NCBI GenBank assembly: GCA_964583975.1
Contig: CAZOXU010000002.1
Location: forward strand, 48,667 to 112,666
Reading direction: 5' to 3'
DNA length: 64,000 nt
DNA from: an uncultured Planctomycetales bacterium
GTDB lineage: Bacteria > Omnitrophota > Gorgyraeia > Zapsychrales > Fredricksoniimonadaceae
Within the stretch, counting starts at the first letter, position 1. The number at the start of each line of letters is the position of its first letter. The notes beneath the pieces are model-generated. The model was not told where the DNA came from. It saw only the letters and a list, made by a program, of their open reading frames with translations, and ran no database searches. Position numbers and translations under genes: made by a program. Below, in pieces: positions 57,201 to 62,030 of the stretch.

Positions 57201-59458
57201 GCGGCCACCTCCTCCCCTTCCTTGCGAACTTGGGTCAATTGACCAACCAATTCTCCTGCCCAACGGTAAATATTGTTACTTTTTACCACCTCTCTCATTT
57301 GTTTCATACGTTGCGCTTGTTCTTCTTTAGGCATTTCCAACGCTGTATAAATTGCTTTTGAAGTTTGACCTATGTCATAGGGGTTAACGATTAACGAATC
57401 ATGCAATTCGCGTGCAGCCCCAGTAAATTGACTTAAAATTAACACTCCCTGCTCATCGTTACGGGCTGCAATAAATTCTTTAGCTACTAAATTCATCCCA
57501 TCATGCAATGATGTAACCATACAGACATCCGCCGCCTTATAAAATGGCAGTATATCCTGATGACTGTGATGCTTCATTAACAAAAGTATCGGCTGCCAAT
57601 TCTTCTTTTTAAATTTTGTATTAATTCGTTCAACTTCTTTGACTATTTCATCGATAAATTCTTTATATTTCGGAATCATGGTACGGCTAGGAGCACCTAA
57701 TTCAACGAATGTAAACTTCCCTCTAAAAAATGAATGAGTATCTAACAGGTTCTCTATAGCACGAAACCGTTCCAAAATACCTTTGGTATAATCCAATCGA
57801 TCTACCCCAACTCCAAGTAATTGAGCCTGAATACCATACTTCTTAAGAAGCATTTGCTTGTCTTCTAATGATTTAACTTCCGTTTCATCCGTAGAATCAA
57901 AACTTATACTAATAGGAAATGGTTTTATAAAAGTTGTGTGCCCTTCACGATTAATAGCAAAATGTTCATAATCAATACGTGATTCCAAGAATCGATCCAC
58001 GGATTCAATAAAATTATTACAATGAAACTGAGTATGGAATCCTAGAATATCAGCACCCAGCATTCCTTGCAGCAATTCCCTCCTCCATGGGCAAATGCCA
58101 AACGACTCCGGGTTAGGCCAAGGAATATGCCAAAATATGGCTATTTTCGCATCAGGCTTTAAAGCTTTAATCATGCTTGGTAACAAAGCAAAATGGTAAT
58201 CTTGGATTAAAATAAAAGGATTTGAAATCCCTTCTAATTCTTCTGCGACAGCCTGAGCAAATTTTTTGTTAACTGCTTTATAATCTTCCCAATCCTTAGC
58301 TCTAAAAATAGGTCTCGTATGTGCGATATGGCATAATGGCCATAGTCCTTCATTAGAAAATCCTGAATAAAATCCTTCCTCTAAATCTTTATCTATCCAA
58401 ACTCGGCGTAAGGTATATTTTGGCTCTTCCGGAGGAACCTTGATTCTGTCATTCTTATCAACTGTTTCACGATCAGCATTACCGCTGCCTTGGGCGATCC
58501 ATGTCCCCCCACAAGCATTGAGCACTGGTTCAAGAGCAGTGACTAAACCACTAGCAGGCACAATACATTCAATTTTGTTATCAGTCTTGATATGCATGTA
58601 AGGTTCTCTGTTGGAAACCACAAAAAGCGGACGATCTTCCAGCTTTAAACGAACAAATTCCTTCAACCTCTGAGGCGTCCAACGGGATTCTGAAGTATAC
58701 CGAAGACGGGCTTCTTCTTCAGCAGCTGCTCTGGCCATATCCAAGCTTTTAGCCATTTGAGTAATCTCTAGGGCCAAAGGTCCCAATAAAAGTTGTTGTT
58801 TAGCATTTAAAGGCCTGGAAGATTCACCTTTGCGAATTCTTCGTATCCACTCTGTAGTTCTTTTTATAGGAATCATGACATTGAAATAGATAACAATAAA
58901 TGTAGTCAATGAAATCAATAATGCCTGAATGAGGGCTCTCCAAAAGCTATTGATTAAAAGTCGTTGAACACGTTCACTAATAAAATCAACATCATAAAAT
59001 AATGTCAAAACATGAGTTGTTTTATCCCCCACTGTTAACGGAACCGCATAAGCATATAGCGATGCTTTCCCTAAATTAAAAAAACTCCCATAATCTGTCC
59101 CTAAACGCTCTACTTCCTGTATTCCTTCAAACAAAACTCTAGTATTAGACTCTAATTGAGGGCTAAAATCTTTTGAGGTAACTATCATATTCTCTCTAGT
59201 ATCATAAATATTGATACCAACAAGCCTTTCGCGATTAGAAAATCTATCCACTATTCGTTGTAAACTTTGAATATTCCCCTCAGCTGCTAACAACGGTTCA
59301 ACCGAAACCTTTAAACTATCTGCAATAAAACTAGCTCTTTTCTCTAGTTCATTCTTAAGACGATCTTGCTCTTGTTGAGCCTGCCAGTAAGAAAAAGCAA
59401 ACGCGACCATAGCAACAATGGATACCAACGATAGAATTAATCGTAAAGTTATTTTCAT
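57197..59458 (-). CDS. otsA: Trehalose-6-phosphate synthase (GT20) with an N-terminal TM-periplasmic-TM-HAMP-like sensor extension.
   Basis: The GT20 core starts at LFVVSNREPY. The N-terminal extension of about 300 aa has two TM helices flanking a roughly 150-aa extracytoplasmic region, then an amphipathic linker. The ATG is at 59456-59458, preceded by SD AGGAG. Confidence 0.8.
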   Translation of the reverse strand: MKITLRLILSLVSIVAMVAFAFSYWQAQQEQDRLKNELEKRASFIADSLKVSVEPLLAAEGNIQSLQRIVDRFSNRERLVGINIYDTRENMIVTSKDFSPQLESNTRVLFEGIQEVERLGTDYGSFFNLGKASLYAYAVPLTVGDKTTHVLTLFYDVDFISERVQRLLINSFWRALIQALLISLTTFIVIYFNVMIPIKRTTEWIRRIRKGESSRPLNAKQQLLLGPLALEITQMAKSLDMARAAAEEEARLRYTSESRWTPQRLKEFVRLKLEDRPLFVVSNREPYMHIKTDNKIECIVPASGLVTALEPVLNACGGTWIAQGSGNADRETVDKNDRIKVPPEEPKYTLRRVWIDKDLEEGFYSGFSNEGLWPLCHIAHTRPIFRAKDWEDYKAVNKKFAQAVAEELEGISNPFILIQDYHFALLPSMIKALKPDAKIAIFWHIPWPNPESFGICPWRRELLQGMLGADILGFHTQFHCNNFIESVDRFLESRIDYEHFAINREGHTTFIKPFPISISFDSTDETEVKSLEDKQMLLKKYGIQAQLLGVGVDRLDYTKGILERFRAIENLLDTHSFFRGKFTFVELGAPSRTMIPKYKEFIDEIVKEVERINTKFKKKNWQPILLLMKHHSHQDILPFYKAADVCMVTSLHDGMNLVAKEFIAARNDEQGVLILSQFTGAARELHDSLIVNPYDIGQTSKAIYTALEMPKEEQAQRMKQMREVVKSNNIYRWAGELVGQLTQVRKEGEEVAA

Positions 59459-59480
59459 TCTAAGAATCTCCTCTTTCTGT

Positions 59481-59565
59481 CTAAAAATAAAAAGACCACC
59501 ACTGGTTTTTAAACCAGATGGCGGCCCGACCATCAACTTATCCTCCAGGATAAAATCTAATCCTG
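59481..59565 (-). promoter_or_regulatory. Conserved leader element, copy A, in the otsA 5' leader. It has a P1 hairpin, a 22-nt box and a terminator-like hairpin with a U tract.
   Basis: Minus-sense CAGGAUUAGAUUUUAUCCUG ... UUGAUGGUCGGGCCGCCAUCUG GUUUAAAAACCAG UGGUGGUCUUUUUAUUUUU. The 22-nt box is identical to copy B at 61818-61839. Confidence 0.5.
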
Positions 59566-59598
59566 AACCCTTTTAATCCTGTTCTAGATAAATCATAA

Positions 59599-60213
59599 TT
59601 ATCGCGTCATAATTCCTTTTTTGAATACGCTAAACATATCCATAAGCCAACTCTTCTTTAAAGTAAAATTATAACCACTCAAACTCCAGTGAGTAATGGT
59701 AGATTGAATCATCCCCCAAAAGATAAAACCTGTCGCATCCACAGCAAGATCCTTACGAAAAATGCCTAACCTTACACCTTGGGTTAAAATAGACTCAATG
59801 GTATTTAAATATTTCTCAACAACCCCAAACATTTCTCTACGAAGAGTTTTATCATGCAAATTTAAAGACTCATTAATTAGGATAAACGATACCCCCTTGC
59901 GTTGTTCCGCATAGGATAGATGCGCAAAGAAAATATTTTCTAGTTTCTGTAGAGGATCAGATTCTTGATTAGCAGCATTCTTAATGGCACCCAAGAGGGT
60001 CTCTTCAATATCTTCAATTAGAAGACTGAGAATTTTCTTCTTACTCTTAAAATGTCTATACAATGCGCCATCGGTGATGTCAAGATCTGCCGCAATTCCT
60101 CGAACAGTTAAATTCTTAATTCCATCGGCAATAATAATCCGCCTTGCGGCATTAACAATTTCCTGTTGACGAACAGTCCTTTTGTGATGCTGAATTTCTA
60201 TTGTCGATTCCAT
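59599..60213 (-). CDS. TetR-family transcriptional regulator.
   Basis: N-terminal HTH (ARRIIIADGIKNLTVRGIAADLDITDGALYRHFKSKKKIL); 204 aa. Confidence 0.8.
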   Translation of the reverse strand: MESTIEIQHHKRTVRQQEIVNAARRIIIADGIKNLTVRGIAADLDITDGALYRHFKSKKKILSLLIEDIEETLLGAIKNAANQESDPLQKLENIFFAHLSYAEQRKGVSFILINESLNLHDKTLRREMFGVVEKYLNTIESILTQGVRLGIFRKDLAVDATGFIFWGMIQSTITHWSLSGYNFTLKKSWLMDMFSVFKKGIMTR

Positions 60214-60235
60214 TAGAAAGCCTTTTCATTAGAAT

Positions 60236-60253
60236 AGTAAGCAAGTGCTTACT
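60236..60253. promoter_or_regulatory. Candidate TetR autoregulatory operator (palindrome) overlapping the tetR promoter.
   Basis: Perfect inverted repeat AGTAAGCA-AG-TGCTTACT, 23 nt upstream of the tetR ATG. A -35 TTGACA (minus-sense, plus-strand 60280-60285) lies upstream. Confidence 0.45.
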
Positions 60254-60502
60254 TGTGACAATATCACCTATTTAAATAATGTCAAGTTCTCAAATAGAAC
60301 CTAACTCTGCTCTTCCATCCAAGCAGCCACGATCTTTTTACTATTAAAATTATTTTCTAATAGACGACTAACCAAGAATTACTGAAGTTGTAACGACCAA
60401 ACATCAGTAAAACAAGCAATTTAATATCCAGCTGATTGTAGTTCAACTTTTTCTTGATTTGGATTAGATAATTTAGTCATGCTTTCTCCCTTTGAAACTT
60501 TA

Positions 60503-61774
60503 TTAACCTAAAAACCGATACAATACTAAATAAGAGCCAACTCCAGCAAAATAACCTAATAGAGCTGGGAATGACGCTTTTCTTAAATACCAAATAAAAT
60601 TGATCTTCTCTATCCCCATAACTACCACACCTGCTGCTGATCCAATAATAAGAACACTTCCACCTGTCCCAACACTAAAAGCCAAAAGCTCCCACAACTT
60701 GGAATCCATGGGAAAATGCGCCAGATCATACATTCCCATGGTAGCAGCTGTTAGAGGAACATTGTCCACAATCGCAGATAGAAGCCCCAGGGCGACTGCA
60801 ATGATGTCTTTATTATTAAGTGTCGTATCCATAAACAATGCCAATCTGGACAATAATCCGGATGTTTCAAGAGCAGATACTGCCAGCAAAACAGATAGAA
60901 AGAATAGAATACTAGACATGTCTATATGATTAAGCGCATGGGGAACTTTTAAATGCTCCTTAGTCTTATGAATGATATCTGTTAATAACCATAATAAACC
61001 CAAACCAAAAAGCACCCCTATGAATGGCGGAAGACCCGTCACTCCCTTAAAAATCGGTACAAGTATCAATGAGCCTAACCCAAGATAAAATACCCTTTTA
61101 GTTCCAACAACCTTTTCATCATTTGTTGAATCAATTCTTGGAATTTCTCCATCCTTCATCGTCAATGTAAAATAAATTAAAGGGACAACCATGGCAACGA
61201 CACTTGGAATAAAAAGCATTTGAATAATCCTTGATGCGCTGACCTGTCCGCCAATCCATAACATGGTGGTGGTAACATCCCCTATGGGAGACCAAGCGCC
61301 GCCAGCATTTGCAGCAATAATAATCATACTGCCAAAAATAAGACGATCATTCCTATCGCTAATAAGACGAGATAGCAGAGAAACCATAACAATTGAGGTT
61401 GTTAAATTATCTAGAACGGCTGATAAAAAAAACGTGCTCAGTGAGATCACCCATAACAACGATCTCTTCTTTCTTACCTTCATGATATTTGTAACAACCT
61501 GAAATCCATTGTGCGTTTCCATTAATCGCACAATAGTCATAGCTCCAATCAAAAAGAATACAATCTGAGCCGTGCTCTCTAAATGATGAGAAAGACTATC
61601 TACGACACCATGTATATTTCCTCCGGTCAGATGTAGATGCTCTTCAGCTAGAAGAACCCAACAAATAACCGCAGTTATCATGGCTGAGGAAGCTTTATTT
61701 ATACCGATGACATGCTCCATCGCCATTGCCCCATACCCAAGCACAAACACAATCATAATCAAATTCTCAAACAT
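60503..61774 (-). CDS. NhaD/ArsB-superfamily Na+/H+ antiporter (NhaD-type).
   Basis: About 12 TM helices. It is similar to NhaD/citrate-transporter-fold permeases. The ATG is at 61772-61774 (MFENLIMIV...). The longer ORF-track start is a TTG and overlaps the leader terminator. Confidence 0.7.
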   Translation of the reverse strand: MFENLIMIVFVLGYGAMAMEHVIGINKASSAMITAVICWVLLAEEHLHLTGGNIHGVVDSLSHHLESTAQIVFFLIGAMTIVRLMETHNGFQVVTNIMKVRKKRSLLWVISLSTFFLSAVLDNLTTSIVMVSLLSRLISDRNDRLIFGSMIIIAANAGGAWSPIGDVTTTMLWIGGQVSASRIIQMLFIPSVVAMVVPLIYFTLTMKDGEIPRIDSTNDEKVVGTKRVFYLGLGSLILVPIFKGVTGLPPFIGVLFGLGLLWLLTDIIHKTKEHLKVPHALNHIDMSSILFFLSVLLAVSALETSGLLSRLALFMDTTLNNKDIIAVALGLLSAIVDNVPLTAATMGMYDLAHFPMDSKLWELLAFSVGTGGSVLIIGSAAGVVVMGIEKINFIWYLRKASFPALLGYFAGVGSYLVLYRFLG

Positions 61775-61785
61775 AAATATCCTTT

Positions 61786-61864
61786 CCCAAAAAAAGCCGT
61801 CACCTGATTTTTTCAATCAGATGGCGGCCCGACCATCAAAAAAACCTCTGGAGAGAAACTCCAG
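61786..61864 (-). promoter_or_regulatory. Conserved leader element, copy B, in the nhaD 5' leader.
   Basis: Minus-sense CUGGAGUUUCUCUCCAG ... UUGAUGGUCGGGCCGCCAUCUG AUUGAAAAAAUCAGGUG ACGGCUUUUUUU. The box is identical to copy A. The terminator hairpin covaries. Confidence 0.5.
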
Positions 61865-61992
61865 ACCCAAATCATATTAACAAATAAGGATTAATATGCA
61901 ATAACACTTTGGATTCTAATAATTTAATTTCACCTACTTCAATGGAGATTAATTATAAACGGAAGAATAAGTTGAAAATTGACACAAAGACA

Positions 61993-62030
61993 TAAAAAAT
62001 CCCCACAACAGCATTGCTATTGCGGGGATT
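61993..62030 (-). terminator. Rho-independent terminator downstream of tRNA-Ser.
   Basis: Minus-sense AATCCCCGCAATAGCAATGCTGTTGTGGGGATTTTTT. Confidence 0.5.

Follow-up and report, generated by a model that had tools for sequence, protein, structure and literature searches.

In the window, i.e., the whole stretch of 64,000 nucleotides of DNA analysed here, the gene for an NhaD-type Na+(Li+)/H+ antiporter is preceded by a short leader (copy B), and a similar leader (copy A) precedes a gene for a trehalose-6-phosphate synthase. The question raised by this locus is which kind of element copy B represents, how it could control the antiporter gene and to which cation it would respond. Judged from its match to a curated covariance model, the leader in front of nhaD is a member of the described nhaA-I riboswitch family, and it acts, with a probability of about 0.85, as an alkali-cation ON riboswitch of the nhaA-I class working by antitermination.

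The nhaA-I RNAs, which comparative genomics brought to light in 2017 (PMC5737381), received their validation as Li+-I riboswitches in 2022 (White et al. 2022, PMC9646797), the validated members coming from Azorhizobium caulinodans, Pseudomonas monteilii and Ralstonia eutropha (PMC9646797). The Na+-II riboswitches correspond to rare nhaA-I variants which combine an intrinsic terminator with a C instead of a U at position 54, and which respond to Na+ (PMC9646797). In single-round transcription assays, the riboswitch from Desulfobulbus propionicus gave read-through upon addition of the cation, and the Na+-II RNA carrying the C54U mutation (M4) gave a response with Li+, Na+ and NH4+ (PMC9646797).

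Family Membership and Architecture of the Leader

The whole window was scanned against Rfam 15 with the curated thresholds, which gave a total of four matches, two tRNAs and two copies of RF03057 (nhaA-I RNA). The match of copy B, located at 61868..61819 on the minus strand, scores 53.1 bits for a gathering score of 37 (E = 1.2e-7, whole window against all Rfam families), and its alignment spans the model over its full length, positions 1-55 of 55. Since the nhaA-I family is already described and curated, copy B is not a new kind of element; the gene associations on record for the family include both nhaD and otsA, and copy B adds one member to them. Chance can be discarded as the origin of copy B in view of the Rfam E-values and of the way the element is conserved in relatives. 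A DUF1646 (Na+-I) or other Rfam identity is equally ruled out, no credible match being found at E<=10: a permissive Rfam scan of the region 59440..61900 gave no match to the DUF1646 model at this threshold, and the other families yielded just chance-level snoRNA/sRNA matches.

The leader reads, on the minus strand, GGGU-CUGGAG-UUUCU-CUCCAG-AGGUUUUUUU-GAUGGU-CGGGCC-GCCAUC-UGAUUGAAAAAAUCAGGUGACGGC-UUUUUUU-GGGAAAGGAUAUUU-AUG, and the aptamer is situated within the 5' UTR, on the same strand as nhaD and 45 nt upstream of its ATG (Table 1). Every conserved nucleotide of the validated RNAs, i.e., GGGU, AGG and GGUCGGGCCGCC, is found in copy B, which also possesses the P2 hexaloop CGGGCC closed by GGU/GCC (61834-61823). 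The 22 nt at 61839..61818 (TTGATGGTCGGGCCGCCATCTG) recur unchanged in copy A at about 59536..59515, and the 22-mer offset by 2 nt occurs at exactly two sites in the window, corresponding to the two copies, compared to none in 100 shuffles. This box corresponds to P2 of the aptamer, a stem-loop that reads GAUGG-U-CGGGCC-G-CCAUC, because the tested sequences in the supplement of PMC9646797 place position 54 just 5' of the CGGGCC loop.

A previous sequence-only reading of this region had described it as a 5'-UTR regulatory RNA carrying an identical 22-nt box at 61818-61839, and both claims hold, the former by the RF03057 score above the curated threshold and the latter by the two sites counted in the window. 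That reading named neither the riboswitch family nor the P2 stem-loop behind the box. The limits proposed for the element (61786-61864) have to be corrected, since it begins 4 nt earlier with the conserved GGGU at 61868-61865. The pairing of the P1 hairpin CUGGAG/CUCCAG was properly recognized, with a loop that consists of the 5 nt UUUCU instead of UUUCUC.

Table 1. Coordinates of the riboswitch copies, their parts and the neighbouring genes in the window.
Feature	Position	Strand	Basis or detail
Sigma-70-like promoter candidate, TTGAAG/18-nt spacer/TAGAAT	61913..61942	-	consensus match only, 9/12 positions
nhaA-I aptamer, copy B	61819..61868	-	RF03057, 53.1 bits, and comparison with validated sequences
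Conserved GGGU, copy B	61868-61865	-	
P1, copy B	61864-61848	-	CUGGAG (61864-61859) pairs with CUCCAG (61853-61848), loop UUUCU
Linker AGGUUUUUUU, copy B	61847-61838	-	
Conserved AGG after P1, copy B	61847-61845	-	
P2 5' arm GAUGG, copy B	61837-61833	-	
Specificity nucleotide U ("position 54"), copy B	61832	-	
P2 loop CGGGCC, copy B	61831-61826	-	
P2 3' arm GCCAUC, copy B	61825-61820	-	
Intrinsic terminator, copy B	61789..61830	-	stem 61830..61794, loop GAAAA, U7 61795..61789
Ribosome-binding site AAGGA, 5 nt before ATG	61780..61784	-	read from sequence
nhaD, NhaD-type Na+(Li+)/H+ antiporter, 423 aa	60503..61774	-	CitMHS PF03600; NF038006 NhaD_1
TetR-family regulator gene, between nhaD and copy A	59599..60213	-	profile matches
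nhaA-I aptamer, copy A	59516..59570	-	RF03057, 51.6 bits
Intrinsic terminator, copy A	59483..59527	-	stem 59527..59493, then UUUUUAUUUUU
Gene behind copy A, 753 aa	57197..59458	-	Glyco_transf_20, E = 4.8e-120; OtsA-type models

Expression Platform and Proposed Mechanism

The terminator of copy B consists of a stem of 15 pairs with one C/A mismatch (GGGCCG-C-CAUCUGAUU / AAUCAGGUG-A-CGGCUU), the 5' arm of which is made of the P2 loop and the P2 3' arm. As a consequence of this reuse, P2 and the terminator are mutually exclusive. On folding, the first 49 nt alone adopt the P1+P2 structure (-16.7 kcal/mol), and the minimum free energy fold of the full leader comprises P1 and the terminator (z = -3.6 versus shuffles), with -31.3 kcal/mol compared to -23.2 kcal/mol when P2 is enforced, a gap of about 8 kcal/mol. 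The register is that of the D. propionicus riboswitch, the 5' arm beginning with the GGCCGC of the P2 loop, and the U7 tract ends 14 nt before the ATG of nhaD.

The two alternative hairpins sharing CCAUCUG that had been proposed from the sequence are thus recovered on folding as P2 and the terminator, which lends support to the accompanying idea of a termination control of the antiporter. Some details were less accurate. The downstream hairpin followed by seven U does occur, with a GAAAA loop of 5 nt and not GAAAAA; it had been taken for a 9-bp hairpin followed by ACGGC, the latter being no spacer since it pairs with the GCCG of the box to give the 15-pair stem. In the same way, the spacing to the nhaD start is not 12 nt, the U-tract ending 14 nt before the ATG (61774) with the AAGGA of the ribosome-binding site (RBS) at 61784-61780 in between. 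A consensus scan also flagged as terminator-like the P1 hairpin followed by GGUUUUUUU (61847..61865, minus strand), which represents the conserved P1 and linker of the aptamer; it is not the terminator, because this feature also occurs in the validated D. propionicus RNA, where termination takes place at the hairpin downstream.

According to the proposed mechanism, transcription would start about 40 nt upstream of the aptamer, and the first 50 nt would fold as P1 and P2 to create an aptamer for a small alkali cation. In the absence of the cation, the P2 loop and P2 3' arm (GGGCCGCCAUC) would be captured into the 15-pair terminator followed by U7, and transcription would end 14 nt before the start codon of nhaD. 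With the cation bound, P2 would be held, the terminator could not form and nhaD would be transcribed, the predicted outcome being the induction of a Na+(Li+)/H+ exporter by an ON switch. By analogy, nhaD is very probably turned on by blocking premature transcription termination. For copy B, we infer ligand binding, the direction of regulation and the identity of the ligand, the D. propionicus riboswitch suggesting that the cation-bound aptamer would stop termination and leave the gene on. The promoter candidate at 61942..61913 lies about 45 nt upstream of aptamer copy B, and farther upstream of the leader occurs a tRNA-Ser(GGA) gene with its own terminator-like site at 62030..61998.

A mainly translational control, in which the leader would hide the RBS and the hairpin and U-tract would be an inefficient terminator, looks quite improbable. 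In the full-leader minimum free energy fold, the U7 of the linker (61838..61844) does pair with the purine-rich GAAAGGAU around the RBS, the hairpin adjoins the nhaD start codon, and the authors of PMC9646797 speculate that ribosome access is the target of most Li+-I members. However, the pairing of the linker with the RBS is absent in copy A and would be weaker at best at the related locus L003, where the U-run of the linker is shorter; moreover, a 15-pair stem abutting U7 is a textbook intrinsic terminator, and in the case of D. propionicus an RNA of this architecture did terminate transcription in vitro (PMC9646797). Antitermination remains the preferred mechanism, to which a translational control of nhaD would add at most a secondary layer.

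The nhaD Gene and Its Start Codon

The product of the gene behind copy B scores 153.6 bits for the NCBIfam model NF038006 (NhaD_1), for a cutoff of 80, and a 100% identical protein of 423 aa is on record. Its best-named homologues, up to 75% identical, come from Candidatus Omnitrophota MAGs; the GC content of the window amounts to 37.7%, and an Omnitrophota-like organism is its probable source, going by these homologues and by synteny. Apart from three truncated entries, nearly all of the best 120 homologues measure 416-433 aa, and none of these 120 reaches the 437 aa of a longer open reading frame starting at a TTG codon. Both the identical record and the homologue lengths locate the start of nhaD at the ATG 61774 rather than at the TTG 61816, in full agreement with the downstream start favoured in the sequence-only reading. 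The same reading held that the TTG frame would run through the box, the hairpin and the poly-U, which is correct for the terminator loop, the 3' arm and the U-tract and incorrect for the box, since the TTG lies just 3' of it. In terms of annotation, the region consists of a riboswitch and not of coding sequence.

The Second Copy and the Trehalose-6-Phosphate Synthase Gene

Copy A gives a full-length RF03057 match of 51.6 bits at 59570..59516 (minus strand; gathering score 37), and shares with copy B the design of its platform, a terminator overlapping P2. The claim that copy B is a second instance of the architecture of copy A is thereby verified, both by the family match and by the terminator design. 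The gene located behind copy A starts at an ATG at 59458 preceded by GAGGAG, and encodes a protein of 753 aa with a GT20 trehalose-6-phosphate-synthase domain (residues about 278-750) joined to an N-terminal membrane region. Copy A would accordingly function as the same ON switch for a membrane-anchored trehalose-6-phosphate synthase, and the organism would thus hold at least two genes, nhaD and the trehalose-P synthase gene, under the same cation-sensing RNA.

The 753-aa protein is not a plain OtsA. Its N-terminal region of about 275 residues looks membrane-anchored, and residues 2-251 resemble the N-terminus of a sensor histidine kinase (WalK model, E = 2.5e-8). No other gene follows the riboswitch as often in relatives as this sensor-like/GT20 fusion, with 20 of the 122 instances among the matches listed.

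Distribution and Conservation among Relatives

Relatives were collected by scanning one genome per GTDB species for the exact 20-mer GATGGTCGGGCCGCCATCTG, which gave at least 119 loci (individual loci are designated by L numbers); one of those listed is an archaeal coding match and nearly all others have a GGGU...AGG aptamer upstream. Eighteen of the 19 relatives sampled pass the RF03057 gathering score. According to the labels of the submitters, which were taken as given for these MAGs, the 122 instances among the matches listed belong to the Omnitrophota (43), the Deltaproteobacteria/Syntrophales (29), the Planctomycetota (20), the Elusimicrobiota (6), the Verrucomicrobiota (5) and smaller groups, nine being unclassified.

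A terminator in the same register is detected behind 101 of the 122 instances listed, with 41/43 in Omnitrophota, 28/29 in Deltaproteobacteria and 16/20 in Planctomycetota, in a sample which is biased in this respect because the 20-mer already extends 3 nt into the terminator arm. In a control run on the usable instances, 101 of 120 were scored as terminators compared to 13% with shuffled tails, and the reversed-box control of the detector was uninformative, with 62/120 positives. Of the 101 terminator-bearing instances listed, 75-98 have a 3' arm that pairs with CCGCCAUCUG, and the variable part of the stem covaries in these instances, which are not phylogenetically independent: the first variable position beyond the box is AU in 61, CG in 14, GC in 13 and UA in 6 of the 101 terminators, and the next one UA in 38, CG in 24, GC in 10 and AU in 6. 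The sequence of P1 differs and yet stays paired in the two copies of the window and at the loci L002 and L003, and C-G, U-A, G-C and A-U closing pairs of P1 all occur among the 89 relatives parsed, the automatic picks leaving 33 of the 122 instances unparsed. P2, being fixed by the 20-mer of the search pattern, has no room for variation in this sample.

The motif has been reported from Proteobacteria, and its terminator-type variants only from Deltaproteobacteria (PMC9646797). The abundance of the terminator type in MAGs labelled as Omnitrophota, Planctomycetota and Elusimicrobiota represents an extension beyond the Proteobacteria, and these terminator-type RNAs sit before osmotic-stress genes. 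Among the 122 relatives listed, the genes behind the riboswitch comprise GT20 trehalose-P synthases (20), MscS (13), SPFH/Band 7 proteins (12-13), DapB-like proteins (5), Na+/H+ exchangers (4), OmpA-like proteins (4), NhaD-type CitMHS proteins (3) and GT4 enzymes (3), along with rarer GH15 trehalase-like proteins (2), Rnf/Nqr (2-3), P-type ATPases (2) and OAD-beta. NhaA is found downstream in a single one of the 122 relatives listed; in the published nhaA-I collection, nhaA accounts for 356 of 944.

Starting from six NhaD homologues of 60-75% identity, nine loci were also inspected, two of which carry the RNA. At L003 (NhaD 73% identical), nhaA-I RNAs precede both nhaD and the GT20 gene and the nhaD-TetR-GT20 order is kept, and at L002 (NhaD 75% identical) a single nhaA-I RNA occurs, in front of nhaD. 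No riboswitch was found at the loci of L004-L010, with homologues of 60-70% identity, so the RNA is tied to the nhaD-TetR-GT20 locus type and not to nhaD generally. Three of these loci (L004, L005 and L006; NhaD 68-70% identical) have nhaD, devoid of a riboswitch, directly behind a cold-shock-domain gene, and the riboswitch control of nhaD is thus locus-specific even within the lineage.

The Adjacent TetR Gene

As an alternative to an RNA element, the box could be a DNA operator of the adjacent TetR-family repressor, the RNA features being incidental, a fallback already considered in the sequence-only reading. The GATGG...CCATC motif is indeed an inverted repeat in DNA, the TetR gene lies between copies A and B, and at L003, L069, L070, L074 and L122 the end of a TetR orthologue (50-60% identity) lies 50-80 nt before the box. 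Nevertheless, within the stretches of DNA analysed, a detectable orthologue accompanies the identical 20-mer at only 5 of the 119 loci listed (directly upstream at four of them, farther away at L018) and at L003, which was fetched separately, and the operator identity is rejected on this co-occurrence. In addition, a curated RNA covariance model is matched, including a further helix (P1), which covaries and lies outside the box, the complementary arm and the U-tract always follow on the same strand, members of the nhaA-I family act as RNA in vitro (PMC9646797), and copy B is not on the promoter side of the TetR gene. The operator reading is therefore extremely improbable, and the riboswitch reading is retained.

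The TetR protein itself shows a YsiA-like C-terminal domain, and its gene has its own promoter-like site at 60285..60258. The TetR-then-riboswitch arrangement occurs in the window and at five other loci, and this conserved order may point to an additional level at which the downstream gene is controlled.

Comparison with Known Cation Riboswitches

MAFFT misaligned P1 of the distant validated sequences and, for this reason, the structural comparison was made by eye. Copy B resembles the Li+-I riboswitches in its two-hairpin aptamer with GGGU, AGG and the GGU-CGGGCC-GCC loop closed by a U-G pair, in its position ahead of a cation/proton antiporter gene, within the 5' UTR, and in its ON-switch logic, which is predicted here. 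It differs from them by the closing pair of P1 (G-C in Li+-I, C-G in copy B), by a U-rich linker, by an intrinsic terminator instead of the presumed RBS control, and by the downstream gene, nhaD in place of nhaA; besides, the Li+-I class was reported from Proteobacteria whereas the host of copy B appears to be an Omnitrophota-like MAG.

With the Na+-II riboswitch of D. propionicus (Fig. 5 and Supplementary Table II of PMC9646797), copy B shares the GGGUC...GAGG base of P1, a similar linker (AGGUUUUCUUG in the Na+-II RNA, AGGUUUUUUUG in copy B), a terminator 5' arm that starts from the GGCCGC of the P2 loop and leads to a U-run, and the predicted antitermination ON logic, and C54-type relatives also precede nhaD (L130). 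In contrast, the Na+-II RNA possesses C54 where copy B has the U of the authors' M4 mutant, the P2 sequences differ, and the Na+-II host belongs to the Deltaproteobacteria, unlike that of copy B. The Na+-I (DUF1646) riboswitches display a two-stem architecture with P2 overlapped by the terminator, and a similar gene repertoire of Na+ transporters, dapB, oad genes and osmoprotectant synthesis, but their Rfam model gives no match and the conserved nucleotides of their lower P1 and P2 loop differ according to the authors (PMC9646797).

The lower part of P1 reads GGGUC...GAGG in copy B and GGGUU...GAGG in copy A, and neither corresponds to the GGGUG...CAGG of Li+-I, a trait which represents a reading of the three published validated sequences and not a stated definition. 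The P1 closing pair is C-G in copy B and U-G in copy A, and the U-rich linker resembles that of the Na+-II RNA. U-rich linkers also occur at L130. The U54 RNAs of the terminator type, copy B among them, combine the "Li+" nucleotide with an otherwise Na+-II-like scaffold, and as such offer a natural test of the discrimination between Li+ and Na+.

Li+ or Na+ as the Ligand

Members of the NhaD family transport Li+ as well as Na+, and consequently the nhaD context does not discriminate between the two cations. Rfam membership is no better guide, since the two C54-type copies found at L130 pass the nhaA-I gathering score too. With respect to copy B, a physiological trigger consisting of Na+, alone or together with Li+, in the frame of a salt-stress response, is rated at slightly better than even odds, and a ligand of some other kind is improbable.

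A canonical Li+-I riboswitch, Li+-selective, which would let NhaD expel toxic Li+ and ignore physiological Na+, is the unlikely but serious alternative. In this respect, both copies harbour a U at the specificity position (61832 in copy B, 59529 in copy A), the single position for which an effect on Na+ selectivity has been demonstrated, and their core is GGUCGGGCCGCC, exactly as in the three validated Li+-I aptamers; RF03057 is annotated from Li+-validated members, and nhaD and otsA are among the listed nhaA-I associations, the authors noting effects of Li+ on trehalose metabolism. However, the validated Li+-I RNAs have a G-C closing pair in P1 and are presumed to act mostly by RBS control, whereas copy B combines C-G with a terminator, like the Na+-responsive variant. 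Among the relatives, a G-C closing pair goes with the lack of a terminator in 7 of 9 instances and the other closing pairs go with a terminator in 72 of 80 (Fisher p = 2.8e-5), an association that ignores phylogeny and is confounded by GC content (60% without terminator, 48% with). The genes behind the subfamily also make up an osmotic/sodium set, in which nhaA occurs once among about 120 instances listed, and in the Na+-II scaffold U54 broadened the response to Li+, Na+ and NH4+ instead of conferring Li+ selectivity (PMC9646797).

Position 54 is a U in all 122 relatives listed, as follows from the search pattern, and no C54 variants were found among the 119 loci listed. A metagenome scan with the box of D. 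propionicus yielded 12 loci, about half of which are chance matches in coding sequence. At L130, a metagenomic NhaD that is 51.5% identical lies behind two C54 (Na+-II-type) aptamers, each with a terminator, an arrangement that speaks for Na+, and at L137/L140 a more distant NhaD follows two C54 aptamers and a degenerate third. A 2022 review states that Na+-II riboswitches were never found in tandem, and it may have assigned C54 doublets such as those of L130 and L137 to Li+-I.

The authors of the class gave no ligand assignment to the otsA- and nhaD-associated members (PMC9646797). As a tentative proposal, less probable than not, the U54 terminator-bearing nhaA-I RNAs with C-G or U-A closing pairs, which are abundant in Omnitrophota, Planctomycetota, Elusimicrobiota and Syntrophales, could form a distinct salt/osmotic subclass responding to Na+, or to Na+ and Li+ alike, whose regulon would bring together sensor-fused trehalose-6-P synthases, MscS, SPFH proteins, NhaD and Na+ pumps. 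Should this subclass be real, the single-nucleotide rule (U54 for Li+, C54 for Na+) would be incomplete, and the lower P1 and the linker would help to set the specificity.

Other Arrangements Observed among Relatives

The SPFH/Band 7 (HflK/C-like) proteins, a class absent from the published nhaA-I association table, are encoded behind the riboswitch at 12 Omnitrophota loci (L013, L021, L046, L048, L050, L051, L060, L092, L100, L102, L119 and L129), and start with MEWQNVP... or MDWQNVP.... At L031, L040, L054 and L066 (Planctomycetota/Verrucomicrobiota), G-C-closing, terminator-less RNAs precede a conserved, unannotated membrane protein of about 125 aa, for which no Pfam match was found at these four loci. 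Two of them, L040 and L066, have the CCAUCUG after P2 complementary to GGAGAUGG at the RBS, a pairing which corresponds to the RBS-control design expected for canonical Li+-I.

At L002 (2555..2945, on a contig shared with L101), the riboswitch and its terminator are followed by an ORF of 49 codons with an NhaD-like start, MFKDPANILVVVIFIC, and about 330 nt separate the aptamer from the beginning of the full nhaD. The short ORF may have been left behind by a duplication or rearrangement, and a gene for a transposase is located immediately upstream. Tandem or nearby aptamers, each with its own terminator, occur at L080 (3071-3258), L095, L124, L130 (4077-4248) and L137/L140, those of L080 consisting of two U54 copies located before an OAD-beta gene.
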